Below are positions 4,816-30,089 of a stretch of 64,000 bases of DNA, in pieces (position 1 is the stretch's first letter; each line of letters opens with the position of its first letter). Origin of the DNA: an uncultured Saprospiraceae bacterium (GTDB lineage Bacteria > Bacteroidota > Bacteroidia > Chitinophagales > Saprospiraceae); NCBI GenBank assembly GCA_964646645.1, contig CAZYHJ010000006.1, positions 4,717 through 68,716 on the forward strand, given 5' to 3'. The notes beneath the pieces were generated by a model. That model was not told where the DNA came from. It searched no databases and worked only from the letters and a program-made list of their open reading frames with translations. The position numbers were made by a program, and so were the translations under genes.

Positions 4816-4831
4816 CTGACCCTTGTCATTT
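4816..4831 (+). promoter_or_regulatory. candidate Crp/Fnr-type operator CTGACCCTTGTCATTT (TGAC-N4-GTCA)
   Basis: 15/16 identical to 9658-9673. The -7-like element cATTTTTG at 4852-4859 lies 36 nt downstream, the same spacing as the second copy. Confidence 0.45.
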
Positions 4832-4898: not shown

Positions 4899-5342
4899 AT
4901 GTCACTCATCAAATGGAATGATCCAATGAAGCTGATGGGGAAGAGGAACTGGGTTGAGAACTTCTTTGCGGAAACCGATGATTTCCTGAAAAACTGGAAT
5001 TGGGATGTCTCTCAGGATGTTCCGGCCGTCAATGTGAAGGATGAAAAAGATTTCTTCATGATTGATGTGGCTGCTCCGGGAATGAAACGGGAAGATTTCA
5101 AGGTGGAAGTCGACAGAGGAGTTTTGATCATCAGCGCTACTACTGAAGAGAAGAAAGAGGAGAAGACGGAGAACTTTAAACGTCAGGAGTTCAGTTACCG
5201 CAATTTCAAACGTTCTTTCTGGCTGCCGGAAAATATAATGCCCGACAAAATCGAGGCCCATTATGAAGATGGCATCCTGAAATTGAAACTGCCCAAAATG
5301 ATGGAAATACCTGAAAAGGTACAGACGATAAAAGTGGTGTGA
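4899..5342 (+). CDS. Hsp20/alpha-crystallin small heat-shock protein
   Basis: 147 aa with an alpha-crystallin domain (PAVNVKDEKDFFMIDVAAPGMKREDFKVEV...EDGILKLKLPK). Confidence 0.95.
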   Translation: MSLIKWNDPMKLMGKRNWVENFFAETDDFLKNWNWDVSQDVPAVNVKDEKDFFMIDVAAPGMKREDFKVEVDRGVLIISATTEEKKEEKTENFKRQEFSYRNFKRSFWLPENIMPDKIEAHYEDGILKLKLPKMMEIPEKVQTIKVV

Positions 5343-5351
5343 TTTCAAATG

Positions 5352-5382
5352 CCGGGGTTCGGCGACGGGCCCCGGTTTTTTT
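5352..5382 (+). terminator. rho-independent terminator after hsp20
   Basis: ccgggg/ccccgg stem followed by a T7 run (ccggggttcggcgacgggccccggttttttt). Confidence 0.7.
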
Positions 5383-5419
5383 ATTTTAGCACCATTATTC
5401 ACGAATATCAGCATTACTC

Positions 5420-5842
5420 ATGGATACCAGCAGACCCGTTTCCGAGATCATGACAAAGCACCTGGTGACCGTTAAACCGGAAGATACCATTGATCGAATC
5501 CATGATCTCTTTGAAAAACACACCTTTCACCACATTCCGGTGGTGGAGAAGAACAAGCTCGTCGGGATCATCTCCAAAACCGACTATGTAAAAATTCGGC
5601 ACATGTTGGCCACCACCTGGTCCGGGGAGACTATTTGCCAGGATATGTATAAGGATATGTGTGCCGGGGATATCATGTCCCGGGAACCCCTTAAAGTGGA
5701 ACCGGCCGATACGATAGGCCTTGCCGCGGATATATTCCGTGCCAATGCCTTACATGCCCTTCCGGTGGTCGAAGAGGGTGAGCTCGTTGGTATAGTTACC
5801 TCTCATGATTTGCTCAATTACGCATACCAGGGCATGCTCTGA
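5420..5842 (+). CDS. CBS-pair domain protein
   Basis: 140 aa, two CBS motifs (HHIPVVEKNKLVGIISKTD; HALPVVEEGELVGIVTSHDLL). Confidence 0.85.
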   Translation: MDTSRPVSEIMTKHLVTVKPEDTIDRIHDLFEKHTFHHIPVVEKNKLVGIISKTDYVKIRHMLATTWSGETICQDMYKDMCAGDIMSREPLKVEPADTIGLAADIFRANALHALPVVEEGELVGIVTSHDLLNYAYQGML

Positions 5843-5890
5843 TTTGCGTTATGCTTATAGTGATTTTCTGATTTATAAATTTTGCTCGTC

Positions 5891-6337
5891 ATGGACAAAT
5901 GGATAGCTGTCAAGCATATTATGACCACTGACCTGGTGACTGCCGATCCGGATGAAGTGCTGGATTCCGTTAAGCACAAGTTGATCTCCAATCACATCCA
6001 GCATATTCCGGTCGTCGAAGGGAAGAAAATACTGGGCATCATCAGTATCAGCGATATGCGACGGATGGAGCATCACTTTACCTTATTTAAATCTGAAAAG
6101 GCTTTGGAAAGCAATCGACAGATTTTTTCCACGATTCTGGCTTCAGAAGTGATGACCAAATCATTGGTCAAGTTGAAGGACACAGACACGGCGTCCATTG
6201 CCGTGGACCTCTTTCGGGAGAATTTGTTCCATGCCCTTCCGGTCGTCAATGACAAAGATCACCTGGTCGGGATGATCACTCCGCTGGATCTGTTAAAATA
6301 TGCCTTTGATGAAAAACCTCCATTAGAGGAAAGTTGA
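5891..6337 (+). CDS. CBS-pair domain protein
   Basis: Two CBS motifs (QHIPVVEGKKILGIISISD; HALPVVNDKDHLVGMITPLDLL). First ATG is at 5891; the listed 5882 start is TTG. Confidence 0.85.
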   Translation: MDKWIAVKHIMTTDLVTADPDEVLDSVKHKLISNHIQHIPVVEGKKILGIISISDMRRMEHHFTLFKSEKALESNRQIFSTILASEVMTKSLVKLKDTDTASIAVDLFRENLFHALPVVNDKDHLVGMITPLDLLKYAFDEKPPLEES

Positions 6338-6349
6338 AAATCAAGTGCT

Positions 6350-7183
6350 ATGAAGATCCTGTTCCCCACTGATTTTTCTACAACGGCAGAAAATGCCTTT
6401 ACCTACGCGATCAAGCTTGCCGACCGTCTCAAAGCTTCCATTACCGTGGTGCATGTCTACGAGTTGCTTCAGTTGCATACCTGGATAGAAGGGGCCACCA
6501 ATATGAACGATCTCAATGAAAAAGTCACCATTGGTGAGTTTGAACATTTCAGGGAACAGATTGACACGTTGAAACGAATAGCCCGCGAAAATCAACTGGA
6601 GCATATTGAAGTAGATTATGTGTTGAAGGAATCAGATTATGTCATTGAAGCCATACAACAGGAAGCAATGACCAACGGAGCGGATTTGATTGTGATGGGG
6701 ACCAAAGGCGCCAGAGGATTAAAGGAAATCTTTTTTGGAAGTGTGGCCACTAAGGTCATGGAGACAGCCCCTTGCCCTGTATTTGTAGTACCTGAAACGG
6801 CCCATTTTAAAGGCATACAGAAAATCGGGCTAACGCTGGAATATAAGCCGGTGGAATATGACCTGATTGAAAAGGCGCTGAGGCTGACCCGTCGGTTGGG
6901 CGGTCACCTGCATTGTGTTCATATTGACAATTATGACGATGAACAGAAGCGATTAGCCTTCCAGGATTACCGGAAGACGTTTGAAGCGGAGCAGGATATA
7001 AGTTTTCACATCCATCACGATCCTGATACGGAAAAGGGAATACTGGATTTCATGAAATTTAATCAGATGGATGTCATTGTGATGTATGTTCATCCCCAGT
7101 CGTTGCTGAAGGATATTTTTTCCTTTAGTATTGCCAAGCGGGTAGCCTATCACAGCGATATTCCCATCCTGGGAATTCATTAA
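6350..7183 (+). CDS. tandem universal stress protein (2x UspA domain)
   Basis: 277 aa. KILFPTDFS...ITVVHV, GADLIVMGTKGARGLKEIFFGSVATKVMETAPCPVFVVP, and a second Usp half ending in DIPILGIH. Confidence 0.9.
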   Translation: MKILFPTDFSTTAENAFTYAIKLADRLKASITVVHVYELLQLHTWIEGATNMNDLNEKVTIGEFEHFREQIDTLKRIARENQLEHIEVDYVLKESDYVIEAIQQEAMTNGADLIVMGTKGARGLKEIFFGSVATKVMETAPCPVFVVPETAHFKGIQKIGLTLEYKPVEYDLIEKALRLTRRLGGHLHCVHIDNYDDEQKRLAFQDYRKTFEAEQDISFHIHHDPDTEKGILDFMKFNQMDVIVMYVHPQSLLKDIFSFSIAKRVAYHSDIPILGIH

Positions 7184-7190
7184 AAACACG

Positions 7191-7233
7191 TAGGGACAGG
7201 TAGGGATATGTAGGGGCAGGTCGCGACCTGCCC
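7191..7233. repeat. decamer word repeat (tagggacagg) ending in a 20-nt perfect palindrome
   Basis: tagggacagg tagggatatg taggggcagg; gggcaggtcg|cgacctgccc at 7214-7233. Confidence 0.6.
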
Positions 7234-7251
7234 TTGTGAAATTTTGATAAT

Positions 7252-7295
7252 AAAAATCGGTAGGGACAGGTCGCGACCTGTCCCTACCGATTTTT
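7252..7295. terminator. 44-nt perfect palindrome; likely bidirectional terminator between convergent usp and response-regulator genes
   Basis: aaaaatcggtagggacaggtcg|cgacctgtccctaccgattttt: a GC-rich stem flanked by A5/T5, ending 2 nt from the regulator stop codon. Confidence 0.75.
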
Positions 7296-7296
7296 A

Positions 7297-8322
7297 TCAA
7301 TTGTGGATGATGATATCCGATCCCTGGATGGATACCAATCCTTCTTCTTTAAATTCCGAAAGGCAGCGGATAATGGTTTCTTTGGCTGTGCCGGCCATAC
7401 TGGCCAGATCTTCGCGAGCGACCGGGATGACCGCGGTGCCATTTTCAAGGTAAAATGCGTGGAGGTCCACGAGGGTAGCGGCCAGTTTCATCCGCACAGA
7501 GCCGAAGGCCTGAAGCAGGAGTTTTTCATCCGCCTGAAGTTGGTTATTGGCCATTTCCTGGAGAAAATAATACGCGATGGAAGGATGATGCAAGACGAAT
7601 GAGATAAAATCATCCCGCTTGATCGGAATCAACTCAAGGTCCTCAAAAGCCTTTACCGTTTCCTGGTATTTGGTGCCTGAGAAGGCAGAGGATACACCAA
7701 CGATCATCGGGTACTGATATAGCCGGGTCACCACTTCTTTTGCGTAGTTGTCAATTTTAGTAGCGATCGCCCTTCCGGATTTTATGGCAAAAACAAAACG
7801 ACAGGTTTGACCTTCGGCAAACAGCAGATCCTTTTTCCTGACCATCCTTGTTTCACTATCCAGGAGGGATTCCGGAAGAGTCTGCATCACTTGTTCTGCG
7901 GTAGGCAGGTTGACTATGGAAGCAGCGACTCCGGCATGTCCCTGATGCGATCTGTGCTTATTTAGTCTGAATTCAATTGTGTTGAGTAACTCAACATCAT
8001 CAAAGGGTTTGGTGATATAATCATCTGCCCCCAATGTCATGCCCCGTCTGACATCAGTCAATTCGGTCTTAGCGGTAAGGAATAAAAATGGGATCATTGC
8101 CGTGGCTTCATTTTTGGACAGAATCCGGAGCACGGTATATCCATCCATTTCCGGCATCATGATATCACAGAGGATCAGATCCGGTACATGTGCAACAGCT
8201 GCTTCCACCCCTAATTTACCATTAGGGGCTGTAACAGTTTCGTATCCGGAGAGCGTCAACAATTCGCTCAGATTTTCTCTGACGTCATTGTTGTCTTCGA
8301 TGACCAGGATTTTATTTTTCAT
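7297..8322 (-). CDS. response regulator with REC domain fused to Crp/Fnr-type effector domain and HTH
   Basis: REC: KILVIEDN, DLILCDIMMPEMDG, KPF. C-terminal cNMP-binding-like barrel plus HTH REDLASMAGTAKETIIRCLSEFKEEGLV. Start taken at MKNKILVIEDN, overlapping the kinase stop by 11 nt. Confidence 0.9.
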   Translation of the reverse strand: MKNKILVIEDNNDVRENLSELLTLSGYETVTAPNGKLGVEAAVAHVPDLILCDIMMPEMDGYTVLRILSKNEATAMIPFLFLTAKTELTDVRRGMTLGADDYITKPFDDVELLNTIEFRLNKHRSHQGHAGVAASIVNLPTAEQVMQTLPESLLDSETRMVRKKDLLFAEGQTCRFVFAIKSGRAIATKIDNYAKEVVTRLYQYPMIVGVSSAFSGTKYQETVKAFEDLELIPIKRDDFISFVLHHPSIAYYFLQEMANNQLQADEKLLLQAFGSVRMKLAATLVDLHAFYLENGTAVIPVAREDLASMAGTAKETIIRCLSEFKEEGLVSIQGSDIIIHN

Positions 8323-9649
8323 AGCTAAGTGGTAGGGTGATATAAAAGGTGGTGCCTTTGCCTTGTTCACTTTCGAACCTGAGCGTGCCCTTCAGGGTGT
8401 GAAGATAGGATAAGACGATATTTAAACCCAAACCGGTTCCTGGAACGTTCACGGCATTTGAAGCTCTGAAAAATCTGGAGCCGATATGTTTCTGGTCCTC
8501 CGGGGGTATGCCCATGCCTTCGTCCGCGATGATCATCTGGAGGAGGCCCTCTTCAATGAAAATGGTGCATCTGACCTTAGTCCCTGCTTCCGAGTACTTG
8601 ATGGCATTGGAAATCAAATTATAGAGAATATTCCGGAGGATGTTTTTATCGGTTTTCATCTCCAGATCATCAAAATCGTGATGGCAGAGAAACTGCTGTT
8701 GTTGCTTCAATAGCCCGTCTACATCGGCTTTAAGCTCAGAGAGAAGTCCATGGACAGAAAAGGTGCTTATGACCGGTACAAATTGACCTTCTTCCAACCG
8801 GGTGATCGAAAGAAAGTCCATGAGAATATTGTTGAGATGGGAGACACTTGATTTTATACGCTCCACGTGACGATTGCGGTCGGCGTCCTGTTCGGTAGTC
8901 GTGTATTTGGATATCAGTGCGGCAGAAGAAAGGATACTTGCGAGCGGTGTCTTAAACTCATGAGAGGCCATGGACACAAATCTCGATTTGAGCGAACTCA
9001 ACTCCTTCTCCTTTTCCAGGGATTTATGCAGTTCATCCCTTGCCGCCACCAGGGCGGTTTCATAAATTTTATGCTTTTCAATCGACTCATTGAGTTGTCG
9101 GTTAGTATCCAGGAGCAAGTTGACCGTATCCTGTAGTTCTGTTGTACGTTCGATGACCAACTGCTCAAGCTCATGATTTAATTTGATGATTTCATCCTGC
9201 ACTTTTTTCATAGGCGTGAGATCCTGCAGGATGCCTGTGAAAAAGTGGTTTTGATCGACGATGATTTCGCTTACCGCCAACCGGACCGGAAACAGGGTGC
9301 CGTTTTTTCTCCGGCCTTCGACTTCGCGGCCGATTCCAATGATCTGTTTATGACCAGTCGAGAGATAATTTTCCAGGTAGTGGTCATGGCCTTCTCTATG
9401 GGGAGATGGCATGAGCATGGATACATTTTCACCAATTAATTCTTCGATGGAATACCCAAAGAGGTGGGTCACCGCAGAATTAGCCATGTGAATCCTCCCT
9501 CTGGTATCAATGACGATAATACCATCGATTGCCGTTTCCACCACAGATTCAAGGACATGTGCGGAGTTGGCATGGGGAAATGTATAAAAGTCAGACACAG
9601 GGCTAAGATATCCATTGTCTATCGCGCGGGCAATGCTGACTATAATCAA
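8312..9649 (-). CDS. soluble PAS sensor histidine kinase, FixL-like heme-PAS type
   Basis: PAS with LMPSPHREGHDHYL...IIGIGREV...FTGILQDLT. H-box SHEFKTPL, N-box NAIKYS, G-boxes DEGMGI and GTGLGL. The start is TTG (9649) or GTG (9598); there is no ATG upstream of the PAS. Confidence 0.9.
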   Translation of the reverse strand: MIIVSIARAIDNGYLSPVSDFYTFPHANSAHVLESVVETAIDGIIVIDTRGRIHMANSAVTHLFGYSIEELIGENVSMLMPSPHREGHDHYLENYLSTGHKQIIGIGREVEGRRKNGTLFPVRLAVSEIIVDQNHFFTGILQDLTPMKKVQDEIIKLNHELEQLVIERTTELQDTVNLLLDTNRQLNESIEKHKIYETALVAARDELHKSLEKEKELSSLKSRFVSMASHEFKTPLASILSSAALISKYTTTEQDADRNRHVERIKSSVSHLNNILMDFLSITRLEEGQFVPVISTFSVHGLLSELKADVDGLLKQQQQFLCHHDFDDLEMKTDKNILRNILYNLISNAIKYSEAGTKVRCTIFIEEGLLQMIIADEGMGIPPEDQKHIGSRFFRASNAVNVPGTGLGLNIVLSYLHTLKGTLRFESEQGKGTTFYITLPLSYEK

Positions 9650-9657
9650 TTTATTGG

Positions 9658-9673
9658 CTGACCCCTGTCATTT
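9658..9673 (+). promoter_or_regulatory. candidate Crp/Fnr-type operator CTGACCCCTGTCATTT (TGAC-N4-GTCA)
   Basis: Near-identical to 4816-4831. A perfect TAnnTTTG (TACCTTTG, 9694-9701) lies 36 nt downstream. The site is 9 nt upstream of the kinase TTG start on the other strand. Confidence 0.45.
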
Positions 9674-9862
9674 TGACCTTTTATCCTTTCAAATACCTTT
9701 GAGAGGGTGAGTTTTGCATGAGGGGTAAGTATAATGTAATCCCGATTTCCATCGACACCTTGCTTTTTTGGCGCATACGTTTTTTATATTAAAAAATAAT
9801 TAATGCGTTAATAGACAGATTGTCAATCAATTAGATTTTATCACACCAATTTTTATAACACA

Positions 9863-10303
9863 ATGGATTTTACAGCACCTGTTTCAAAATGGATGACCAC
9901 CAAAATGGTCACTGTGGTTCCGGGAGATTCGGTTTCCGTGGTCAAGGATATTTTTGACCAGCAACGGATTCACCATATCCCGGTCGTGAAGTATCGTACC
10001 CTGGTTGGATTGATCAGTAAATCTGATTTTCTCCATTTTCTCAGGGGTATGGAGACCACCCCTTATGACAAGTTGGTTGAAAAAAGCCGGCTTGAGCATT
10101 ATAAGGCAGAAGATATTATGACTACGGGACTGGCGACACTTGAGCCCAATGAAAGGCTTAACGTGGCCCTTCAACTTTTTAGTGAGAACCTTTTTCATGC
10201 CATTCCCATTGTCGAGAAGGAGGAGTTAGTGGGTATCCTCACCACATTTGATATTATCAGAGCATTGGTAGAGGAAGATAATAAACGAATTAAATCAACC
10301 TGA
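9863..10303 (+). CDS. CBS-pair domain protein
   Basis: 146 aa with HHIPVVKYRTLVGLISKSD and HAIPIVEKEELVGILTTFDII. Confidence 0.85.
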   Translation: MDFTAPVSKWMTTKMVTVVPGDSVSVVKDIFDQQRIHHIPVVKYRTLVGLISKSDFLHFLRGMETTPYDKLVEKSRLEHYKAEDIMTTGLATLEPNERLNVALQLFSENLFHAIPIVEKEELVGILTTFDIIRALVEEDNKRIKST

Positions 10304-10307
10304 TTTC

Positions 10308-11423
10308 ATGCAATGCTCTAATGCCATTGAAGCAATGAATATAGAGTTGTATAGTATTCGCGGGTTTACAGGAAGTGCGCTGAAGCAGAAGCTTGAGCGC
10401 GAGTTGGTGGCGCACCATATGCATGTACCGGTGGATGAGATCAACCAGGTCGACCGATTCATCAAAGCTGGGCTGGTGGCTGTTCCTGCATTTAAGATTG
10501 GGGACAAGGTGATCCAGCATCCGCATAATGGAGATGTCGAAGAGACCGTCAGGAATGTAATGGATTATATCCTCGCGGAGCATTTGAACAACATTCTTGT
10601 GCCGGTTGATTTTTCCGAAGGGTCCTTCAATGCCATCGCATTCGCCAGAGCTATTGCGGTCAAAATGGGCTATGGTATAACACTGGTGCATATTCACCAG
10701 ACGCTTTATGATCCCATTTCCGCAGGGGCCCTGGATGTACAATTGCTGAAGGATGTCAATACCCGTCTCCAGCAGTTAGTGGAGGAACTCAGCGTGCAGG
10801 CTATTTCGGATGGGCAAGATATTCATTTCAATGCCCATATGGAAGTAGGGGAGACCTCCAGCAGTCTGATTGAATTGCTGGATCATGGAAAATATGAAAT
10901 GATGGTCATGGCTACCAAATCCACCGATAATGCCATGCGCAGATTTTTTGGAACCGTGTCTTCAGAAGTCAGCCGAAGAAGCCATAAGCCTGTGGTCGTT
11001 ATTCCGCCTCATACTGAAGCGAAGTTTCCCGGAAAGTTAGTCATTGGATTTACCGAAGAACTATTTCATGAAAATGTATTGGATGATATCATTGAATTTG
11101 GCTGCATGAATAATGCTTTTTTTGATTTCATCCATATCACCAATGACCAGCACCATTTTGAGCGTTTGAAGGATAAATTGTACCAGCGGCTCGTGACTAA
11201 GCGCGATTTACTTTGCGGTTTCAATATCAAATGCCTGGAGGGGGATGATGGAAAAGTACATGAGAAGATCTCTCGGTACGCAAATGAAGTACGCGCCGGT
11301 ATGATTGTTCTCGTGACGCATCAGAGAAAGTTCCTGGAAGCATTGAGGCATGAAAGCGTAACCAAAAAGGCCCTTCATCACCCTGAACTTCCGATCCTGA
11401 TTATACACCAGGCAAAAGATTGA
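10308..11423 (+). CDS. tandem universal stress protein with N-terminal thioredoxin-fold-like extension lacking CxxC
   Basis: N-terminal ~90 aa resemble small Thioredoxin_3-type proteins (IELYS...VPAFKIGDKVI) but have RGFTGS where CxxC is expected. Two Usp domains follow (ILVPVDFSEGS..., MMVMATKS..., PILIIH). Alternative start at 10335. Confidence 0.8.
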   Translation: MQCSNAIEAMNIELYSIRGFTGSALKQKLERELVAHHMHVPVDEINQVDRFIKAGLVAVPAFKIGDKVIQHPHNGDVEETVRNVMDYILAEHLNNILVPVDFSEGSFNAIAFARAIAVKMGYGITLVHIHQTLYDPISAGALDVQLLKDVNTRLQQLVEELSVQAISDGQDIHFNAHMEVGETSSSLIELLDHGKYEMMVMATKSTDNAMRRFFGTVSSEVSRRSHKPVVVIPPHTEAKFPGKLVIGFTEELFHENVLDDIIEFGCMNNAFFDFIHITNDQHHFERLKDKLYQRLVTKRDLLCGFNIKCLEGDDGKVHEKISRYANEVRAGMIVLVTHQRKFLEALRHESVTKKALHHPELPILIIHQAKD

Positions 11424-11432
11424 TGCCTTTCA

Positions 11433-13946
11433 TCAGACAGGAGACGAAACGCGTTTTATTGCTTTGACCGCTTCAAACCAAAATACTGAAAGGGCCGCTA
11501 CGCCTGTACAAATCAGGATGTCCTTCCAGTGTGGGGTAGCCAGTTGGAAAAAAGCAGTGATGGGCTTGAAATAGAGCATGGAGCTCAGGATCAGTAGGGT
11601 CAGCCCGATAATTCCGTAAAGTAATTTATTGTTGTAGCGCAGCGTAGTCAGAAAGGAGTAATAAAACGATCTGTTGACAAGCGTCAGGAATATATTAGAG
11701 ATGATCAGCGTAGAGAAAACCATCGTTCTTACATAGGTTTCCGTACCACCTCTCCACAGTGAAAACTGGTATATAGCCAGCACGCCTGCTGTAATCATTA
11801 AGCCTTGCAATATGCTCATGCCCAGTTCTCTGAAGTTGAGAAATGTCTCTGTCATACGACGCGGAGGCTGCTGCATCGTATTGGCTTCCATGGGTTCATT
11901 TTCAAATACAATGGAGCAGGTAGGCCCCATGACCAGTTCAAGAAAGATCACATGTACCGGCGTGAAAATATCAGGGTAAACCCATCCCAAAAAAAGTGGA
12001 AGGGATACCGTAAGGATAATCGGAATATGGATCGAGATGATGTATTGGATCGCCTTCTTGAGATTGGCATAAATTCGTCTGCCGGTGGCAATTGCTGATA
12101 CCAGTTTGCCGAGATCGTCGTTCAGGATAATAAGGGCGGCCGCGTTTTTAGCCATTTCGGTTCCCTTTTGCCCCATGGCGATTCCTATATGCGATGATTT
12201 TAGCGCAGGACCGTCGTTGACTCCATCCCCCAACATCGCCACGATTTGCTGATCTTGTTTCAGCGCATTTACAGCGGCGAGTTTGGCTTCAGGATACATG
12301 CGGGTAAACAATGCTTTTTCGGCGACGGTCCTCACAAAGGCAGACTCATCCATCCTCATGAGTTCCTCCCCATCTACGGCTTCACCTGTATTTTTAAGTC
12401 CCGCTTTTAACGCAATCGCTTTTGTAGTCTCCGCGTTGTCACCGGTGATGATCTTGACCTTGATGCCTGCTTCCTCAAATTGCCTGAATACATTTTCAAT
12501 CCCTGTTTTGGGGGGATCATAAAAGATAACAAGCCCAATAAAGGAAAAATTAAAATCACGCTGGTCATCGGGAAATTCATGGCCACTATATTCAGCCCTG
12601 GCTACCCCTAACATCCTGTATCCCTTTGCGGCAAGTGATTGTAACGTGTCAATGATTTTACTCCGTTGTGCGGGAGATAATCCACAGGCTTGAAGGATGG
12701 CTTCCGGGGCGCCTTTGGAGGCAATGATTCTGCGTCCTGCCTTGTCCTCAAAAATATGGGTCATCATAGGCGGTTGACCACCCAGCGGATATTCATGCGC
12801 CATGGTGAAATCATCCCGCTGATCTTCGCTGATATACATTTCGTATGCCTGATGGATCGACTTTTCCATCGGATCAAATGGATTTGGTTCGCTTGCCCAC
12901 ATGGCTGCCTCTATGACGTTCATGCCTTTGTTGGCGAAGGCATCAACTTCCATGATCAGGTGGTCATGTTCAAAATCATATACCCCGATGAGGCTCATCC
13001 TGTTCTCGGTAATGGTACCTGTCTTATCCGAGCAAATGACGGTAGCGCTCCCTAAAGTTTCCACCGTTCTTGTTTTCTTGACGATGACTCCATCTTTCAT
13101 CAGACGACGTGAACCAAGCGCCATAAACGTCGTAAAGGCTACGGGGATTTCTTCAGGCAAAATGGACATGGCCATGGTGAGGCCTTTGAGCAGGCTTGCG
13201 AGGATATTTTTACTTTCGGCAAACTGTACGGCCCACACCATGAGAAAAACCAGGATCCCCACAAGCGCCATTTTTTTGACAAACGATTCTATTTGTTGTT
13301 GCAGTGGGGTGGGTTCTTCCCGTATCTCCACCATCGACTTTCCGATCTGGCCGATACGTGTTGAGCTGCCTGTTTTATCCACCTGATATACAGCCAATCC
13401 GGAAGAGGCTAATGTCCCACTGTATACCCGTGGGTCCGAACTTGATGTTGATTTGAAAATAGCCTGCGCCTCACCGGTCAGAGCGGACTCATTGACCGAA
13501 AAATCATTGGAATGGACGATCACACCATCCGCATTAATCGTTGCACCCTCTTCTGCCAGGACAAGATCACCCGGAACGATTTCGGTGGTCAGAATATGCT
13601 GCGGCTCTCCATTGCGAATGACTTTGCTCAGCGGTGTATTCAATGCTTCCAGCGCCTCCAGCGCCTTCCGGCTGCGATTGTCCTGATAGAAAGAGATGCC
13701 GGAGACAATCAATATCGCAGCCAGCATGAAATAGGCCTCTCCCAACTGTCCCATCCAGATATAGATCAACGCGATAGCCAGCAATAGCAGCAACATCGGT
13801 TCACGCATGATCTCAAAAAGCACGTGCCACCAAGTACGTTTTGCTTTCTGATGTTGAATGTTCAGCCCGTATTGTTTTCTCAATGACAAGACTTCCGCAT
13901 CTGAAAGACCGGTGAGATGAGAAGGAATGTTGAGCCGGGTGGACAT
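11433..13946 (-). CDS. cation-transporting P-type ATPase (P2-type, Ca2+-ATPase-like)
   Basis: 837 aa: DKTGTITEN phosphorylation site, TGDN, GDGVNDGPALK hinge, PEEIPV in TM4, Cation_ATPase_N-like start. Confidence 0.95.
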   Translation of the reverse strand: MSTRLNIPSHLTGLSDAEVLSLRKQYGLNIQHQKAKRTWWHVLFEIMREPMLLLLLAIALIYIWMGQLGEAYFMLAAILIVSGISFYQDNRSRKALEALEALNTPLSKVIRNGEPQHILTTEIVPGDLVLAEEGATINADGVIVHSNDFSVNESALTGEAQAIFKSTSSSDPRVYSGTLASSGLAVYQVDKTGSSTRIGQIGKSMVEIREEPTPLQQQIESFVKKMALVGILVFLMVWAVQFAESKNILASLLKGLTMAMSILPEEIPVAFTTFMALGSRRLMKDGVIVKKTRTVETLGSATVICSDKTGTITENRMSLIGVYDFEHDHLIMEVDAFANKGMNVIEAAMWASEPNPFDPMEKSIHQAYEMYISEDQRDDFTMAHEYPLGGQPPMMTHIFEDKAGRRIIASKGAPEAILQACGLSPAQRSKIIDTLQSLAAKGYRMLGVARAEYSGHEFPDDQRDFNFSFIGLVIFYDPPKTGIENVFRQFEEAGIKVKIITGDNAETTKAIALKAGLKNTGEAVDGEELMRMDESAFVRTVAEKALFTRMYPEAKLAAVNALKQDQQIVAMLGDGVNDGPALKSSHIGIAMGQKGTEMAKNAAALIILNDDLGKLVSAIATGRRIYANLKKAIQYIISIHIPIILTVSLPLFLGWVYPDIFTPVHVIFLELVMGPTCSIVFENEPMEANTMQQPPRRMTETFLNFRELGMSILQGLMITAGVLAIYQFSLWRGGTETYVRTMVFSTLIISNIFLTLVNRSFYYSFLTTLRYNNKLLYGIIGLTLLILSSMLYFKPITAFFQLATPHWKDILICTGVAALSVFWFEAVKAIKRVSSPV

Positions 13947-14144: not shown

Positions 14145-15716
14145 TTAATGTAATTCAATCGTCTCTACCTCTGGTATATTAATCATCTTCAGTTGAATAT
14201 GTTTACGATGTGCTTTGGATTTAAAGTCGTGGAAAATTTCAAGAATATCCTGGTCAATATAAACACTGTCTGCTCCATTGATTTCCACAACAGCATATTC
14301 GGGGATCTTGTCCAGCATTTCCATGATCCTTTTTTTATTGATAAAGCTCACATTGAGGGCCAGTTCGATGACATAATGCTTCATGTGGCCATCATGCTTT
14401 TCCTTGATGACATAACCGGCCTTGATCGTGTTCTTTATCAGGAAGTACACGGCATAGGTGATACCAATCAGTACGCCAATGAGAAGATCGGTAGCCAGAA
14501 TCGCAATGACGGTGACTAAGAAAGGAATAAACTGTTCGCGTCCTTGTTTATAGATGGCTTTGATCATCGAGGGTTTGGCTAGGTTGTATCCGGTACGCAC
14601 CAGGATGACCGCCAGTACACAATATGGAATCAGATTAATGAGTGGGATCGCAACGACTATGGCCAGCAACAACCATATACCGTGCATAAATGCTGAAAGC
14701 CTTGTCCTGGCACCAGCTTCAGCATTGGCTGAACTTCTCACAATCACCGCGGTAATAGGGAGTCCGCCTAATAATCCACTCAGAAAATTACCGGTGCCCT
14801 GGGCAACGAGTTCGCGATTTTGTGGCGTGATCCTGTTTAGTGGATCGAGTTTGTCGACCGCCGTGATGCTGAGCAAGGTCTCCAGTGACGCCACAAAGCA
14901 AATGACCACCGCATTTTGCCAGATCAGTCCATTACTAAAGATTTGATTGAAGTCTGCCGGTTTGATCTGACGAAGTATATCATGAGGAATATTGACGAAT
15001 TGCGATGGCTTGATCTGTGTAGTTGTAAATAATTGATTAAATGCAATGGCCAGGAGAATCCCCGAAAGCACCGTAATGAAGGAGGTGGGCAGAAAACTGA
15101 TTTTTGCGGCGATGTACTTTTTCCAGAGAATCAGGATCAGTAAGGTCATAACAGAGATCGTAACAGCTCCTGTCGAAGTATGGTGATATAAACTTCCAAT
15201 GCCGTGAAATCCGTTTTTGAAGGTGATCAGATTAAAAATTTCATTGGTCCAGAAATCTGGTTGGTCATACCCCACAAGTAGGGGGATCTGTTTGGAGATG
15301 AGGATAATCCCGATCGCGGTCAGCACGCCTTTGATGACGGCCGATGGAATGAAATGGGTAAAACCACCTAATCTGAAGATGCCGAGTAATACCTGTAAGA
15401 GTCCGGCAACAGCCACTGAAACAAAGAAGATTTCTATTGCGCCTAATTCGGTAATCGCAGTCGCGCATATCGCCGTAAGGCCAGCCGCAGGTCCGCTGAC
15501 ACTGAGTTCTGATTTGCTGATCAGTGAGATGATGATTCCACCAATGATACCCGCCAGAATACCTGAATACACCGGAGTACCCGATGCCAGCGATACACCC
15601 AAACAAAGTGGAAGGGCAACGAAGAAAACCGTGATACTGGCCTTAAAGTCATGACGACTGAAGGTAAGCCAATAGTATCGAATCTTTCGTGGATTCCAGA
15701 TCCTGGCAAAATCCAT
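14145..15716 (-). CDS. SulP family anion transporter with C-terminal STAS domain
   Basis: 523 aa, multi-TM Sulfate_transp-like core (LPLCLGVSLASG, VAQGTGNFLSGLLGGLPIT) plus a soluble C-terminal STAS-like domain. Confidence 0.88.
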   Translation of the reverse strand: MDFARIWNPRKIRYYWLTFSRHDFKASITVFFVALPLCLGVSLASGTPVYSGILAGIIGGIIISLISKSELSVSGPAAGLTAICATAITELGAIEIFFVSVAVAGLLQVLLGIFRLGGFTHFIPSAVIKGVLTAIGIILISKQIPLLVGYDQPDFWTNEIFNLITFKNGFHGIGSLYHHTSTGAVTISVMTLLILILWKKYIAAKISFLPTSFITVLSGILLAIAFNQLFTTTQIKPSQFVNIPHDILRQIKPADFNQIFSNGLIWQNAVVICFVASLETLLSITAVDKLDPLNRITPQNRELVAQGTGNFLSGLLGGLPITAVIVRSSANAEAGARTRLSAFMHGIWLLLAIVVAIPLINLIPYCVLAVILVRTGYNLAKPSMIKAIYKQGREQFIPFLVTVIAILATDLLIGVLIGITYAVYFLIKNTIKAGYVIKEKHDGHMKHYVIELALNVSFINKKRIMEMLDKIPEYAVVEINGADSVYIDQDILEIFHDFKSKAHRKHIQLKMINIPEVETIELH

Positions 15717-15721
15717 AGAAT

Positions 15722-16117
15722 CTATGTTTTAGCATGTTTGTACAAATAAAGGCCAATCAGGAATAAAGCTACACCAATACTTCCATAGAGCAGCTGGAGA
15801 TAGGAGTACTGCCGGATCATCAGCATCTGTACCAGGATCCATCCTGATAAGATGATGCCTTCTGCAAGGATCAGCCATGTATAATGCTTCCAACGAAGAG
15901 CGGTCCAAACCAGCGCCACGATGGACAATATACCATTGAAGGTGAACAGGATAATGCCTGGGATCAGAAAATCTTTAAACGGACTGTGTTCAAGAAAGGT
16001 GACCGGCATTTGAAGGTCACTGCCTGTAGGATCCATGATCAGGCTCCAGCCTCCAAATATTGCACTTACGCCATTAAAAAGTAAGAGTATCAATGCAAGA
16101 ACGTTAAGTGTTTTCAT
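15722..16117 (-). CDS. membrane protein (4 TM), unknown function
   Basis: 131-aa hydrophobic ORF, 5 nt upstream of the SulP start; likely co-transcribed. Confidence 0.5.
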   Translation of the reverse strand: MKTLNVLALILLLFNGVSAIFGGWSLIMDPTGSDLQMPVTFLEHSPFKDFLIPGIILFTFNGILSIVALVWTALRWKHYTWLILAEGIILSGWILVQMLMIRQYSYLQLLYGSIGVALFLIGLYLYKHAKT

Positions 16118-16165
16118 GATTCAAGTGTTGAAAATAAGAAAATGATCTTGCTCTTGTAATTGCTA

Positions 16166-16846
16166 TCAGGCATTCCATTTTCTCGATTTAAGAAAAATGG
16201 CTAGCATCAACATGATCATCCAGATATTCCAAAAGAGATAGAGTCCCATACCTGTCGATGTCAGCACCCAACCCGGTTCCAGTATTGTCCATATCGGACT
16301 GATCATACTGATGAGCCCATTCCCAATCATCAACCACTTAATGAAGTTGCTTTTATTTTGATAAAAAGTTGCTCCAGCCCATGTCGCCCATCCCAGAAAG
16401 CAATATCCCCACATTTCATTGGCCCAACAAAAGGATTCAGGATTGGCCATGGATAACCCTGCAATCAGGCTTTCATATTCTGGCCGAAAGTCTTCCACCA
16501 GATTTGGAATAAAACTAATTTGACAAACATAATTGAATGCAATCAACCCCAGAAATACGATAGTCAGGGCAAGGGAAATGACCATTGAAGGTCTGATTTG
16601 TTTTGTGGAAGTAAAATCATAGGATAAATGACCCACAGCCAGTAGTAGCATTCCTGCAAGAATGAGAAATCCAAGATAGTAGGGAAGGGACTGGATTGGA
16701 TGATAATAGGTAATGTATTGAGAAACCGTCAGCCAATCAGGTTGTGGATGAGTGATCAAGACTATTGACACTGCCATTGGGCCAGAGCAAAAAAATCCAA
16801 TCAAACTAATAAGCGCCCCTGCCCTAATCATTTTTAAAGCTTTCAT
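16166..16846 (-). CDS. membrane protein (multi-TM), unknown function
   Basis: Hydrophobic ORF. First ATG (MKALKMIRAG) is at 16846; the listed start at 16888 is TTG. Confidence 0.5.
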   Translation of the reverse strand: MKALKMIRAGALISLIGFFCSGPMAVSIVLITHPQPDWLTVSQYITYYHPIQSLPYYLGFLILAGMLLLAVGHLSYDFTSTKQIRPSMVISLALTIVFLGLIAFNYVCQISFIPNLVEDFRPEYESLIAGLSMANPESFCWANEMWGYCFLGWATWAGATFYQNKSNFIKWLMIGNGLISMISPIWTILEPGWVLTSTGMGLYLFWNIWMIMLMLAIFLKSRKWNA

Positions 16847-16971
16847 TCGCACTGGTAGTTTAATCAAAGCCAATGGCAATTTAACCAACTACTGCATTAA
16901 AATTCAATTCCCGCTGAACGATAAAACCAATTTCTGCTGTCAAGTTTAATCTTAATCTAAAATAAAATATC

Positions 16972-17005
16972 TGATATCCGTCACCAGATAAGATGACAAT
17001 AGTCA
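16972..17005. promoter_or_regulatory. pair of TGA-N6-TCA palindromes (TGATatccGTCA, TGACaataGTCA), 22 bp centre to centre
   Basis: Read directly. The minus-strand -7-like element TAAACTTG (16941-16948) is 29.5 bp from the proximal box centre, as at hsp20 and cbs. Confidence 0.3.
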
Positions 17006-17067: not shown

Positions 17068-18705
17068 TCAGCCCGGGCTAATGATTTTTCTTGCATGAGC
17101 TAATGCATCACGTGAAGAAGGAGCATTTCCATTGATCGTGATCAATTGCGTGTAATATGATGTTGCTTTCTTTAGATCTCCCATTTTTTCTGCGGCGATG
17201 CCGGCACCAAATACGGACCTGAATCGGTTTGGCCTGCCGGTCAGGCATTGTTCGTATGCAGTCAAGGCTTCTTTGAGCATCCCCGCCTCCATGTACATAT
17301 CGCCTAACAGTTCACGGGAAGGGAGTAGTTCACCCGGAGACACAGGGTTTTTTACGGTGGCATCTTCAAGATCTGCTGCTGCTTTCATCATGGTTATGCC
17401 CTCATCCTTTTTGCCGGATTGATAAAGTATCCAGGCTGAAATGGAATTTTTCTGTGCTTCCATTTGATCAAACCAATATTTTGTTTGAGGTGCATTTCCG
17501 AGTTGTGTTTGAAGCGCAGTGAGTTGAGCCAATGCTTCATTGGCTTCGGTGTTCTTTCCGCTCCTGGCAGCACCAAGCCCTTTGGCATAAAAGACGAGCG
17601 CCGCCCATTGAGGAAATTTGTTCCAGGTCAGTTTTGATGTATCTGGTACAGGTAATTGAGCAGCTTCGGACCAAAGCCCGTTTTCCAGTGGAATCCTGGA
17701 AGGAATGGCAGCCATGGCATAAGCAGAAGCCGCATTAAAATATATAGGTGTGGAGATAGTATCGATTTGCTTTTTAATGGCAATTGCTGCCTCATCATTT
17801 CCTTGCTGGAGCAGGGCATATACTTCATAATCCAACGCATGAAACATATGAGGAGACACCTGTCCGTTGTATGGAAGTCTCGCTGCAGCCTGCGCAGATC
17901 TTGCATTCCATTCTATCGATTCAGGCCAATATCCAAGGCGGGTAAAAATATGCGATGGCATGTGGAGGGCGTGAGGAATTTCAGGTGCAATCTTGCCATA
18001 AGTTCTCGCCACTTCGATAGCACGGTCCGCCAGGGGAGGTACATCGTATGCGTGTATGGCATAATGATAAGCGCCCGGATGGTCCGTATATGTGGCCAGG
18101 TATTTCTCTGCCATTTCTCCTACCTCACGCTGAACGGTAAAAGTTTTATCTGCGGGAGAAGCGGTACCTAACCTGAAAAGTCCGTTAAATAAGGCGGCTT
18201 CAGGATCATCGGGAAGTTGAGCAGTGGCCTGGGCCCAACCTTGCTGGAAATCAGCCAAACGTTGTGCTTTGTTTTTATCACTTCTTTCATAAAAGGACGC
18301 GAGTGCGGCCCCATACAATTTCTGGGTTTCATTGCCGGCGAGGGACATCGCCTTTTGGGAGAGTTGCCATCCAGATTCCATTTCTTCTGCCGTCGGAACA
18401 TCGGGCCAGAGTGGGTGTATATAGGTCATGGCTTTGCCCCAGTATCCCCAGAAACATTTAGGATCCTTTTCAATGACCTTGTCAAAAGTGTATGCAGCGT
18501 CCTCATAAGTCATGTGATGGATCAGCGCAATTCCAAATCGAATGAGCGTATCCGTTTGTGGGCCGCACCCATCCGTAAACTGGATAGTACCACACATTAC
18601 CTCAGGCGTGAGGAAAACATTTTGTGAAGCATCAGTAACCTGTTTCTTGTCCGAACAGGCATAAAAAGGCATAAGGAATGCCAATGGAAGGAGAACATTT
18701 TTCAT
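17068..18705 (-). CDS. TPR-like lipoprotein, unknown function
   Basis: Signal peptide plus lipobox (PFYAC), helical-repeat composition, His-rich segment HYAIHAYD...HALHMPSHIF. Confidence 0.55.
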   Translation of the reverse strand: MKNVLLPLAFLMPFYACSDKKQVTDASQNVFLTPEVMCGTIQFTDGCGPQTDTLIRFGIALIHHMTYEDAAYTFDKVIEKDPKCFWGYWGKAMTYIHPLWPDVPTAEEMESGWQLSQKAMSLAGNETQKLYGAALASFYERSDKNKAQRLADFQQGWAQATAQLPDDPEAALFNGLFRLGTASPADKTFTVQREVGEMAEKYLATYTDHPGAYHYAIHAYDVPPLADRAIEVARTYGKIAPEIPHALHMPSHIFTRLGYWPESIEWNARSAQAAARLPYNGQVSPHMFHALDYEVYALLQQGNDEAAIAIKKQIDTISTPIYFNAASAYAMAAIPSRIPLENGLWSEAAQLPVPDTSKLTWNKFPQWAALVFYAKGLGAARSGKNTEANEALAQLTALQTQLGNAPQTKYWFDQMEAQKNSISAWILYQSGKKDEGITMMKAAADLEDATVKNPVSPGELLPSRELLGDMYMEAGMLKEALTAYEQCLTGRPNRFRSVFGAGIAAEKMGDLKKATSYYTQLITINGNAPSSRDALAHARKIISPG

Positions 18706-25089: not shown

Positions 25090-25824
25090 TCATATATCCT
25101 CAGTAAGTAAAAGTGCTAATAATCCACTCACGTCCATGATCTGGATATGCCGGCCTTTAATCTGCACGAGATCTTTACCTTTCAAGCCATGAAGCGATCT
25201 GACTATGGTTTCCAATGAAGCCCCTACATATTCTGAAAGTTCTGTCCTTGTGATCGTAATTTCTCCGTTCACCGAGCCCGATAGCCTGTATTGTTCATGG
25301 AGAATAAGTAATGCAAGCACTAACCTGTGGCGAACCGGAAACTTTGTAAAAATGGTCATTCGATTCATCCAAACGGTAAAGTCTCGAGCCAAGGCCAAAA
25401 GCAGTCCCTGGACAAAAGCAGGTGAAACTTCCATTAATTTTTTAAAGCTGATAGCGGGAATCAGGATGACCTCCGCATCTTCGAGTAGAACTGCAGAAAC
25501 CGGATGTAGCTCTTCGGCAATCAGTTGCCTGAACCCTATTAAATCGCCATTGGAATAGATATATAGTGTCTGTCGTTGACCACCAGGCGTCTCTTGCAGG
25601 ATTTTAACTTTCCCGCTGATCAGCCACACGACTTGCCTTGGAATGGTTCCTTGTTTGAACAACCATTCTCCACGCTTGAGTTTTTTGAGTTTGCCATGTT
25701 GTCTTAGCCAATCCTTGTCACTAAGGGGTAGTTTGTCCATCCATTCCTGGTTTCGGAACAGATAAGGCGAAATGATTTTAGTCAAAGCGACATCCTGATC
25801 CCTCATCCAGTCAAACGTAACCAT
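25090..25824 (-). CDS. Crp/Fnr family transcriptional regulator
   Basis: cNMP-binding-like barrel (GEWLFKQG...GDLIG) and C-terminal HTH (RTELSEYVGASLETIVRSLHGLKGKDLV). Confidence 0.8.
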   Translation of the reverse strand: MVTFDWMRDQDVALTKIISPYLFRNQEWMDKLPLSDKDWLRQHGKLKKLKRGEWLFKQGTIPRQVVWLISGKVKILQETPGGQRQTLYIYSNGDLIGFRQLIAEELHPVSAVLLEDAEVILIPAISFKKLMEVSPAFVQGLLLALARDFTVWMNRMTIFTKFPVRHRLVLALLILHEQYRLSGSVNGEITITRTELSEYVGASLETIVRSLHGLKGKDLVQIKGRHIQIMDVSGLLALLLTEDI

Positions 25825-29253: not shown

Positions 29254-29904
29254 TTAGCCAGGATGAAAGCACATTGAGAACCAATTTTTAGCCCGTTCAG
29301 CTACTTCCTCCATTTTTCCCTGCTCTTCAAAAAGGTGCGTTGCCCCTTGGATAATGGTGAGTTCTTTTTTACATGACATCTCCGTCATTGCTTTCCTGTT
29401 GAGCATCAGCACATCCTTATCCAGACTACCTACAATGAGTAGTACCGGGCACTTGACTTTGTCCAAGGAACCAATAGCCAGATCCGGACGCCCTCCCCGC
29501 GATACTACTGCGCCAATGCGATCATCAAGGATGGCAGCCGCTTTTAATGCCGATGCAGCCCCGGTACTGGCACCAAAAAACCCTATGTTCCGAAAGGACC
29601 ATGCAGGTGCATCAGAGATATACATTGTGACATCAACCAGCCGTTGGGTAAGGAGATCAATGTCAAACCGGTTTTCGACACGACGATCTTCTTCCACTGT
29701 TAACAAATACATCAGTAGCGTGGCAAATCCAAACCGATTCAAATGGGCAGCTACAAACCTGTTTCTGGGACTCAGCCGGCTACTTCCGCTTCCATGGGAG
29801 AAAATAATAAGATCACGCGCCTCATCCGCCATACTCAGATCGCCTATGATACGCTCCCCATTCCCTGTGCCTATCTCAATTTCCCGATATTTAACAGCAC
29901 TCAC
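29254..29904 (-). CDS. dienelactone hydrolase-like alpha/beta hydrolase
   Basis: 216 aa: IIFSHGSGSS, nucleophile elbow FFGASTGAA, late GATHLF His. Confidence 0.75.
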   Translation of the reverse strand: MSAVKYREIEIGTGNGERIIGDLSMADEARDLIIFSHGSGSSRLSPRNRFVAAHLNRFGFATLLMYLLTVEEDRRVENRFDIDLLTQRLVDVTMYISDAPAWSFRNIGFFGASTGAASALKAAAILDDRIGAVVSRGGRPDLAIGSLDKVKCPVLLIVGSLDKDVLMLNRKAMTEMSCKKELTIIQGATHLFEEQGKMEEVAERAKNWFSMCFHPG

Positions 29905-30089
29905 CGGAATAATATTTTATTAAAGTTCATCCCGGGCACTCAAAATCCCTATGATGTCAATCATTTGCCTGTGTGAGGTCAGTCATATGAAATTTATTAG
30001 TATTTCATTTGGTTTATGATACTATAGATGGGTGCTTTATCATCCAGTATGGAGGGATGTGTATGCATCTCAATTTTATACAACGAACA

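Follow-up and report, generated by a model that had tools for sequence, protein, structure and literature searches.

The closest working model for the locus described here is the FixL-FixJ-FixK system of rhizobia and Caulobacter, including the hFixL-FxkR-FixK variant (PMC7888657). In that system, three proteins act one after the other: downstream of a haem-PAS kinase, either phosphorylated FixJ, which has a LuxR/GerE-type output, or the OmpR-type regulator FxkR induces fixK, and the Crp/Fnr protein FixK provides the final output. Here, we analyzed a 64,000-nt stretch of DNA (referred to as the window) from an uncultured Saprospiraceae bacterium (assembly GCA_964646645.1, contig CAZYHJ010000006.1, positions 4,717 to 68,716), in which a FixL-like haem-PAS kinase gene overlaps a gene for a response regulator consisting of a receiver domain fused to a complete Crp/Fnr module. 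The haem-PAS kinase, a receiver that would be phosphorylated, the final Crp/Fnr output and palindromes with a TGA-N6-TCA core are common to both systems. However, the arrangement in the window is compressed by one protein and one transcriptional step, since receiver and Crp module form a single polypeptide and no transcription intervenes between them. Further differences are the host, which belongs to the Bacteroidota, and the linked genes, which relate to stress and stasis instead of fixNOQP or nif.

Among members of the Crp/Fnr superfamily, FNR of Escherichia coli and Aliivibrio fischeri (5cvr, 5e44) shares with the regulator the Crp fold, a similar box core and an input module at the N-terminus of the barrel, which presumably controls dimer activity. 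However, FNR senses O2 itself via an N-terminal [4Fe-4S] cluster bound by four cysteines, whereas an FNR-type N-terminal Cys cluster was not found in the regulator sequence, where a receiver of 120 residues occupies the N-terminus and sensing would be left to a separate kinase. CRP/CAP resembles the regulator in the structure of the C-terminal part and in the Glu and Arg of the recognition helix; it differs in that its residues E72, R82, S83, T127 and S128 are not kept in the regulator, which additionally carries the N-terminal receiver.

In regulon content, DosS/T-DosR of Mycobacterium tuberculosis comes closest. The DosR (DevR) regulon includes hspX, many universal stress protein (Usp) genes, the CBS-pair gene Rv2626c, the ATPase gene ctpF and fdxA, and DosR promoters are characterized by autoregulation and, as a hallmark, by tandem, helically phased boxes (PMC3177182). 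Like DosS and DosT, the kinase here is a putative haem-based sensor, and the gene families of an island surrounding the pair in the window closely match hspX, Rv2626c, Usp and ctpF. However, DosS and DosT hold their haem in a GAF and not in a PAS domain, and DosR has a NarL/LuxR-type output and a different box sequence. Since regulator and sensor domains are unrelated and there is no sign of common ancestry, the DosR-like regulon content would be convergent.

A literature search, which did not cover published response-regulator censuses, found no reports on receiver-Crp/Fnr regulators or FixL-like kinases in Bacteroidota, and receiver fusions go unmentioned in a 2023 review of the CRP-FNR superfamily (PMC10187061). 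The receiver-Crp architecture is visible in public domain annotations, and homologues are labelled just "response regulator" or "CheY-like" in public sources. The protein is a two-component regulator with an unusual, uncharacterised output, and what is specific to the window is the DosR-like island, the tandem boxes and, as a new feature, the truncation of the regulator by a repeat element.

A receiver fused to a Crp/Fnr module and its partner kinase

The regulator gene comprises the following features (positions refer to the window).

7297..8322 (-), receiver-Crp/Fnr response regulator gene, 341 aa, stop codon TGA at 7297-7299 (open reading frame, translation and three Pfam domains)
7975..8310 (-), receiver (CheY-like) domain, residues 5-116, with the acidic pair E9/D10, T83 and K105 (PF00072)
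8166-8164 (-), codon of the phospho-acceptor D53
7900..7944 (-), flexible inter-domain linker, about residues 127-141, modelled with low confidence and variable in sequence across homologues
7591..7845 (-), cNMP-binding-like beta-barrel (residues 160-244) whose nucleotide pocket is degenerate (PF00027 and CRP alignment)
7502..7584 (-), long C-helix, residues 247-273, the dimer interface expected for the Crp family (AlphaFold2 model and Foldseek superposition)
7300..7488 (-), Crp-type winged helix-turn-helix, residues 279-341, recognition helix AKETIIRCLSEF (PF13545)

The translation of the open reading frame (ORF) opens with MKNKILVIEDNN. Its start was placed at ATG 8322, because the N-termini of all 15 aligned homologues coincide with this Met; on the same grounds, an in-frame GTG further upstream (8370) was ruled out. 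A sequence-only reading of this stretch, made earlier and without database searches, had proposed that the protein joins a receiver to a cNMP-binding-like barrel and a Crp-type helix-turn-helix (HTH). Pfam searches bear this out, with all three domains above threshold: Response_reg over residues 5-116 (E 1.3e-27; 96.5 bits, cut-off 30.2), cNMP_binding over residues 160-244 (E 4.5e-10; 39.8 bits, cut-off 27.5) and HTH_Crp_2 over residues 279-341 (E 2.4e-13; 50.3 bits, cut-off 27). The motifs on which that proposal was based are likewise present, namely DLILCDIMMPEMDG with D53 and KPF with K105 in the receiver, and REDLASMAGTAKETIIRCLSEFKEEGLV in the HTH. In sequence searches, the N-terminal half matches receiver domains only, and the C-terminal half aligns end to end with full-length Crp/Fnr chains in phmmer (residues ~160-341), as exemplified by 7ets (E 6.7e-11, residues 26-206 of the C-terminal query against chain residues 29-216).

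An AlphaFold2 model of the regulator, built on 65 homologues, reached a mean predicted local distance difference test (pLDDT) score of 88.7 and a predicted template modelling (pTM) score of 0.57. It comprises a (beta-alpha)5 receiver (residues 1-127), a beta-barrel (~159-235), a helix (247-273) and a winged HTH (276-340), and the layout of the Crp/Fnr superfamily, with barrel, C-helix and C-terminal Crp-type HTH, is present in order. While the barrel was modelled with high confidence and the block means of the receiver lie mostly at a pLDDT of 86-96, with a dip to 66-75 over residues 81-100, linker residues 127-135 remain below 50 and appear disordered; the pTM score is consistent with two rigid bodies on a flexible tether. 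Foldseek searches against the PDB matched the ~200 C-terminal residues (~140-341) to CRP, MtbCRP, GlxR, Vfr and CLP with target-normalised template modelling (TM) scores of 0.74-0.81, and the best structural matches include CRP/CAP (1g6n, 1i5z). No target spans both halves (query-normalised TM score <=0.51) and each half matches separately; therefore, no solved structure combining a receiver with a Crp module was found in the sequence and Foldseek searches of the PDB. The C-terminal half thus folds and scores as Crp/Fnr in Pfam, phmmer, AlphaFold2 and Foldseek alike, and the regulator is confirmed as a receiver fused to a complete Crp/Fnr module.

Across the 65 homologues (45-91% identity), E9, D10, D53 and K105 show no variation, and position 83 carries Thr or Ser. 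The receiver active-site set of acidic pair, phospho-acceptor Asp, Thr/Ser and Lys is therefore complete, and because of this invariance the receiver looks competent for phosphorylation. For the barrel, the product of E. coli crp, taken from the MG1655 record, was aligned with the receiver-Crp family. CRP E72 is replaced by Val in the regulator (Val, Leu or Ile in the family), R82-S83 by Glu-Thr (Asp-Ser in some homologues) and T127-S128 by Ala-Asp, which leaves Gly71 as the sole cAMP contact kept. Judged from this loss of all other cAMP contacts, the barrel is not a cyclic-nucleotide receptor. The recognition helix reads KETIIR in the regulator and RETVGR in CRP, with E315 and R319 being the equivalents of CRP E181 and R185. 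This Glu and Arg, which in CRP contact the TGA core, are invariant in the CRP alignment as well as in the 65 homologues.

The sequence-only reading had furthermore likened the protein to FixJ and FixK merged into one. As a functional analogy this is fair, but it does not extend to orthology. The receiver matches OmpR/PhoB-type proteins best (PhoB 1.8e-26 compared to FixJ 7e-18), the NCBIfam FixJ model reaches 64.9 bits against a cut-off of 255 and does so over the receiver part only, and FixK2 (4i2o, E 2.5e-5) ranks below more than 40 other Crp-family chains. The regulator does not belong to the FixJ family, because its output is of the Crp type and not of the LuxR type, and it does not belong to the FixK family, because it shows no specific similarity to FixK.

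The kinase gene directly upstream on the same strand is described by four features.

8312..9598 (-), FixL-like haem-PAS histidine kinase, 428 aa, probable start GTG 9598; the longest ORF begins at TTG 9649
9388-9386 (-), codon of the candidate proximal His
8962-8960 (-), codon of the H-box His
8312..8322 (-), 11-nt overlap of the kinase 3' end with the regulator ATG, ATGAAAAATAA (read from the sequence; kept in relatives)

The kinase carries PAS, HisKA and HATPase_c domains (Pfam). In comparisons with the PDB, its PAS domain retrieves the FixL haem domains first (1d06, E 1.2e-30; 1dp6, E 5.1e-28) and DosP next, and the His of R-x-x-HD-x-Y as well as the FG-loop Arg of IIGIGR align with the FixL haem domain. 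The kinase core is nearer to PnpS/PhoR/WalK-type models, and, as far as these comparisons indicate, the kinase is FixL-like in its PAS domain only. Since homologues have lengths of 418-428 aa and align with the longest ORF from V18 onwards, translation probably starts at GTG 9598; TTG 9649 is an unlikely start. The kinase ORF terminates with LSYEK-TAA at 8312, and the 11-nt overlap with the regulator gene starting at ATG 8322 (tATGAAAAATAA) could be read directly, just as the sequence-only reading had described it. The same reading had taken this overlap to suggest translational coupling and a fixed stoichiometry. However, overlapping stop and start codons are the ordinary operon layout of two-component genes, which suggests co-translation but does not fix the stoichiometry of the products.

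The pairing of the two genes extends well beyond this locus. We sampled 400 Bacteroidota species genomes for full-length regulator matches covering both receiver and Crp module, and found a full-length copy in ~60 of them, i.e., in roughly one in seven. The carriers are concentrated in the class to which the window belongs, particularly in families f1 (7/8), f2 (14/21), f5 (16/28), f6 (6/7) and f12 (6/12), while none of the 87 sampled genomes of the large family f24 has a full-length copy. The source assembly, a 78%-complete metagenome-assembled genome, contains a single one. Judging by the names given to close homologues, the window belongs to the Saprospiraceae. At 27 of the 29 best representative Bacteroidota loci, a homologue of the kinase is encoded immediately upstream in the same orientation, with the match including the PAS domain in 25, and the same kinase immediately precedes the regulator in metagenomic relatives at 91%, 69% and 46% identity. 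In 17 of 31 loci, the 3' end of the kinase gene and the 5' end of the regulator gene share 4 to 26 nt, and a gap of <=21 nt separates the genes in nine more; the 11-nt overlap recurs in three relatives (L001, L003 and L017), and eight others have a 4-nt ATGA overlap. In an alignment of 30 partner kinases, the column of the candidate proximal His is kept in 29, and a stringent pattern search for the FixL haem signature matches 6, which limits the full signature to a subgroup. The pair is therefore common in Bacteroidota and the architecture is not rare, and the conserved gene order supports the view of kinase and regulator as a cognate pair.

Candidate operator boxes and the surrounding gene island

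As a candidate operator, we considered the FNR-like palindrome TGAY-N4-RTCA. The window contains 22 such boxes compared to 6.9 expected, a number that was reached in none of 100 shuffles, and the whole assembly contains 580 compared to 229 expected from base composition. Furthermore, a spacing of 22 bp (centre to centre), one of five spacings tested, accounts for 12 of the 24 close pairs found assembly-wide. The following boxes and associated features are relevant to the pair.

9637-9648 and 9659-9670 (unstranded), boxes TGACTATAATCA and TGACCCCTGTCA in tandem, with centres 22 bp apart, in the gap separating the kinase operon from the divergent cbs-usp genes
9694-9701 (+), TAnnTTTG motif, starting 29.5 bp from the centre of the box at 9659
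4817..4828 (unstranded), box TGACCCTTGTCA, preceding the hsp20 ATG (4899) by 71 nt
16972-16983 and 16994-17005 (unstranded), tandem boxes TGATATCCGTCA and TGACAATAGTCA, 22 bp apart, before the membrane-protein/SulP operon (16888..14145, -)
25090-25824 (-), stand-alone Crp/Fnr paralogue with cNMP_binding and HTH_Crp_2 domains, helix SLETIVR and no Cys cluster

With the kinase starting at GTG 9598, both boxes upstream of it, including that at 9637-9648, are intergenic. Among 24 orthologous loci, 12 have an exact box no further than ~300 nt ahead of the kinase gene, and the density of boxes in these upstream regions (14 in 7.5 kb, or 1.9 per kb) exceeds that over the whole loci (0.34 per kb). This enrichment directly upstream of the kinase gene points to a link between boxes and regulator, and the boxes of the kinase operon suggest autoregulation. 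The TAnnTTTG motif is not enriched in the window (32 found, 44 expected), and therefore only its position beside the boxes is suggestive. A scan for sigma-70 promoters and terminators yielded nothing exceeding shuffles, as expected for Bacteroidota promoters.

Three further sites were recorded in the window. A perfect site resembling the FNR consensus, TTGATCGTGATCAA, is located at 17133-17144, inside the 5' part of an ORF for a tetratricopeptide repeat protein (17068-18705, -) and ~130 nt from the tandem boxes at 16972 and 16994. Another 22-bp tandem pair, the second box of which has one mismatch, lies at 29952-29985, with a dienelactone-hydrolase-like gene (29254-29904, -) on one side and a family X DNA polymerase gene (30009-31850, +) on the other. 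Finally, box TGATTTTAGTCA at 25773 is found in the 5' region of the stand-alone paralogue.

The pair is surrounded by an island (4899-13946) that encodes an Hsp20/alpha-crystallin protein, three CBS-pair proteins, two tandem-Usp proteins and a P-type cation ATPase; HSP20, CBS-pair, Usp, P-type cation ATPase and SulP were all confirmed as neighbours. Genes for CBS, Usp, HSP20 and cation ATPase proteins also flank the pair in the relatives L001 and L003. Elsewhere in the genome, 22-bp tandem boxes occur at C13:35287, C19:8597, C19:15515 and C4:9167 (contig and position), and the genes behind them encode a class I cytochrome c lipoprotein, a small CxxCH lipoprotein, a multihaem cytochrome c and a 2x[4Fe-4S] ferredoxin. 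Judged by their boxes, these genes are candidate members of the same regulon.

Proposed mechanism and competing explanations

We propose that the kinase, a soluble protein with one FixL-type haem-PAS domain, senses O2 (most likely) or another haem ligand. Upon departure of the ligand from the haem, it would autophosphorylate its H-box His and transfer the phosphate to D53. The receiver is placed where classical FNR has its Fe-S arm, i.e., at the N-terminus of the Crp/Fnr module, to which a flexible linker joins it; phosphorylation would most likely either pair the receivers or free them from the Crp module, whereupon the C-helix dimer could present its two HTH domains correctly for DNA. As the barrel is devoid of the residues that hold cAMP, phosphorylation would replace a ligand as allosteric input and thereby do the job of the Fe-S arm in FNR or of cAMP in CRP. 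The active dimer would bind TGAY-N4-RTCA, often at two boxes 22 bp apart and ~30 bp from the Bacteroidota -7 motif, and would act as an activator of hsp20, the three CBS-pair genes, the two Usp genes, the P-type cation ATPase gene and the SulP operon; the distal cytochrome c and ferredoxin genes are probably part of the same regulon. In this way, the FixL-like kinase and the regulator probably switch on the adjacent stress/dormancy island at low oxygen. We consider the mechanism as a whole, from the kinase signal to activation of the island, to be rather probable, its weakest links being which signal is sensed and which protein owns the boxes.

A wider proposition, which we regard as plausible without going as far as calling it probable, is that the pair constitutes a phylum-wide hypoxia/dormancy switch of aerobic Bacteroidota. 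A haem-PAS kinase would directly phosphorylate an FNR-type activator whose receiver replaces the Fe-S arm, and this single step would control a regulon of alpha-crystallin, Usp, CBS-pair, P-type ATPase, ferredoxin and cytochrome genes that has converged on the content and the tandem-box architecture of the DosR regulon. How oxygen shortage is sensed and survived is poorly understood in aerobic Bacteroidota of soil, freshwater, marine habitats and activated sludge, such as the Saprospiraceae, and the pair represents a testable candidate for an oxygen switch, made up of two proteins, a short palindrome as operator and a compact island of target genes. Moreover, it would be a natural experiment in allostery, as a Crp scaffold that responds to cAMP, an Fe-S cluster, haem or 2-oxoglutarate in other lineages would here take its input from a phosphorylated receiver. 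The resemblance between the island and the DosR regulon, if confirmed, would clearly illustrate how a dormancy programme can evolve convergently.

Several observations weigh against the proposed oxygen-responsive switch. The whole kinase reaches 155 bits with the NCBIfam FixL model NF041777, for which the cut-off is 850, and is therefore no FixL equivalog; furthermore, FixL R206, which we take to be the Arg contacting the haem propionate, aligns with an Asn in the kinase. In half of the orthologous loci, no exact box precedes the kinase gene, and several boxes of the window sit within coding sequence. The gene for the cbb3 oxidase subunit CcoN (C157:2-970) is cut by a contig end, and its promoter lies beyond the contig. 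Stand-alone Crp-family paralogues, encoded in the window at 25090-25824 and on contig C13, also possess an E-x3-R recognition helix; since two paralogues share this helix, the assignment of the boxes to the receiver-Crp regulator is one that we infer. Lastly, all 15 aligned homologues of the regulator end with xxKLxxLRY, whereas the regulator in the window stops 9 residues short and, lacking this conserved tail, may be impaired.

The question of box ownership leads to the first of four alternatives, in which the boxes belong to a stand-alone Crp/Fnr paralogue and the receiver-Crp regulator recognises a different site and regulon. The paralogue helices SLETIVR (25090-25824) and RIETVIR (C13 protein) would be compatible with this, and the box at 25773 falls within the opening codons of the longest ORF (25090..25824, -), or shortly before the gene if a later start is used; this paralogue is a possible competitor for the same operators. 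However, the helix KETIIR of the receiver-Crp regulator offers the same Glu/Arg contacts, the boxes cluster on the island around the pair, and their enrichment upstream of the kinase-regulator operon was seen in 12 of 24 genomes across the class. We consider it unlikely that the boxes belong to a paralogue.

The identity of the signal is the subject of a second alternative, according to which the kinase reports a signal other than O2, such as NO, CO or the haem-iron redox state, and the regulon serves stasis in general or nitrosative stress instead of hypoxia. Besides the Asn at the position of the FixL propionate Arg, this is favoured by the partner kinases from other orders, most of which keep the His and diverge from HD-x-Y...IIGIGRE. 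In mycobacteria, DosS and DosT, which control a similar set of genes, respond to redox state, O2, NO and CO. On the other hand, the closest solved relatives of the PAS domain are the O2 sensors FixL and, next, DosP, and the full-length regulator is missing from all sampled genomes of family f24 but present in most of those from several other families. If f24 were an anaerobic lineage, an O2-linked role would gain support. A signal other than O2 is, in our judgement, not likely.

In a third alternative, the regulator has two inputs, and both phosphorylation of the receiver and a small ligand other than cAMP in the barrel are needed. There are parallels for such ligands in 2-oxoglutarate for NtcA, haem/CO for CooA and c-di-GMP for CLP. 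The barrel is fully kept and well conserved, and R175, Y219, E227 and D228, which are specific to the family and near-invariant, extend this conservation beyond the Crp core. However, the residues that define cyclic-nucleotide binding are gone, and the invariant residues of the barrel mostly belong to a structural core shared with CRP (CRP G34, G46, K58, E59, G72 and E94). In addition, no candidate gene for producing a ligand is linked to the locus, and members of the Crp family that act without a ligand are known (PMC10187061). A requirement for a second input appears quite improbable.

A palindromic repeat at the 3' end of the regulator gene

The shortened C-terminus of the regulator is explained by a repeat element that was delimited by aligning the DNA to the locus encoding the 91%-identical homologue.

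7240..7299 (unstranded), palindromic repeat element of ~60 nt, core 7252-7295

The element, TTGATAAAAATCGGTAGGGACAGGTCGCGACCTGTCCCTACCGATTTTTATTATCAA, starts right after CACAAT, replaces the final 27 coding bases and supplies the TGA stop. In a second structure prediction, made for the 91%-identical homologue, the tail missing here forms a short helix (residues 342-346; mean pLDDT of the last block ~85). In a full-length orthologue, the additional residues read VQKLAELRY.

According to the last alternative, this insertion has damaged the regulator by removing its C-terminal helix, leaving it weakened or inactive in a decaying locus; this is very doubtful, since, even though the element replaces codons for an ending shared by all 15 homologues, the HTH and both wing strands are intact in the AlphaFold2 model, E. 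coli CRP, which has no tail of this kind, terminates at the corresponding point, the remaining ORF is 91% identical to its intact relative and free of frameshifts, kinase and island genes are intact, and the truncation may be an assembly error at a repeated palindrome. With HTH and wing untouched, and with the end of CRP at the equivalent position, we expect the truncated regulator to be functional, possibly in an altered manner.

A second, related palindrome is located at 7213-7234, and this downstream copy is the only one present in the 91%-identical relative. Across the assembly, the palindrome core GGGNCAGGTCGCGACCTGNCCC is found at 8 places, and its variants keep the arms complementary through compensatory changes, so that the element looks like a member of a mobile hairpin family resembling repetitive extragenic palindromes (REP) or miniature inverted-repeat transposable elements (MITE).

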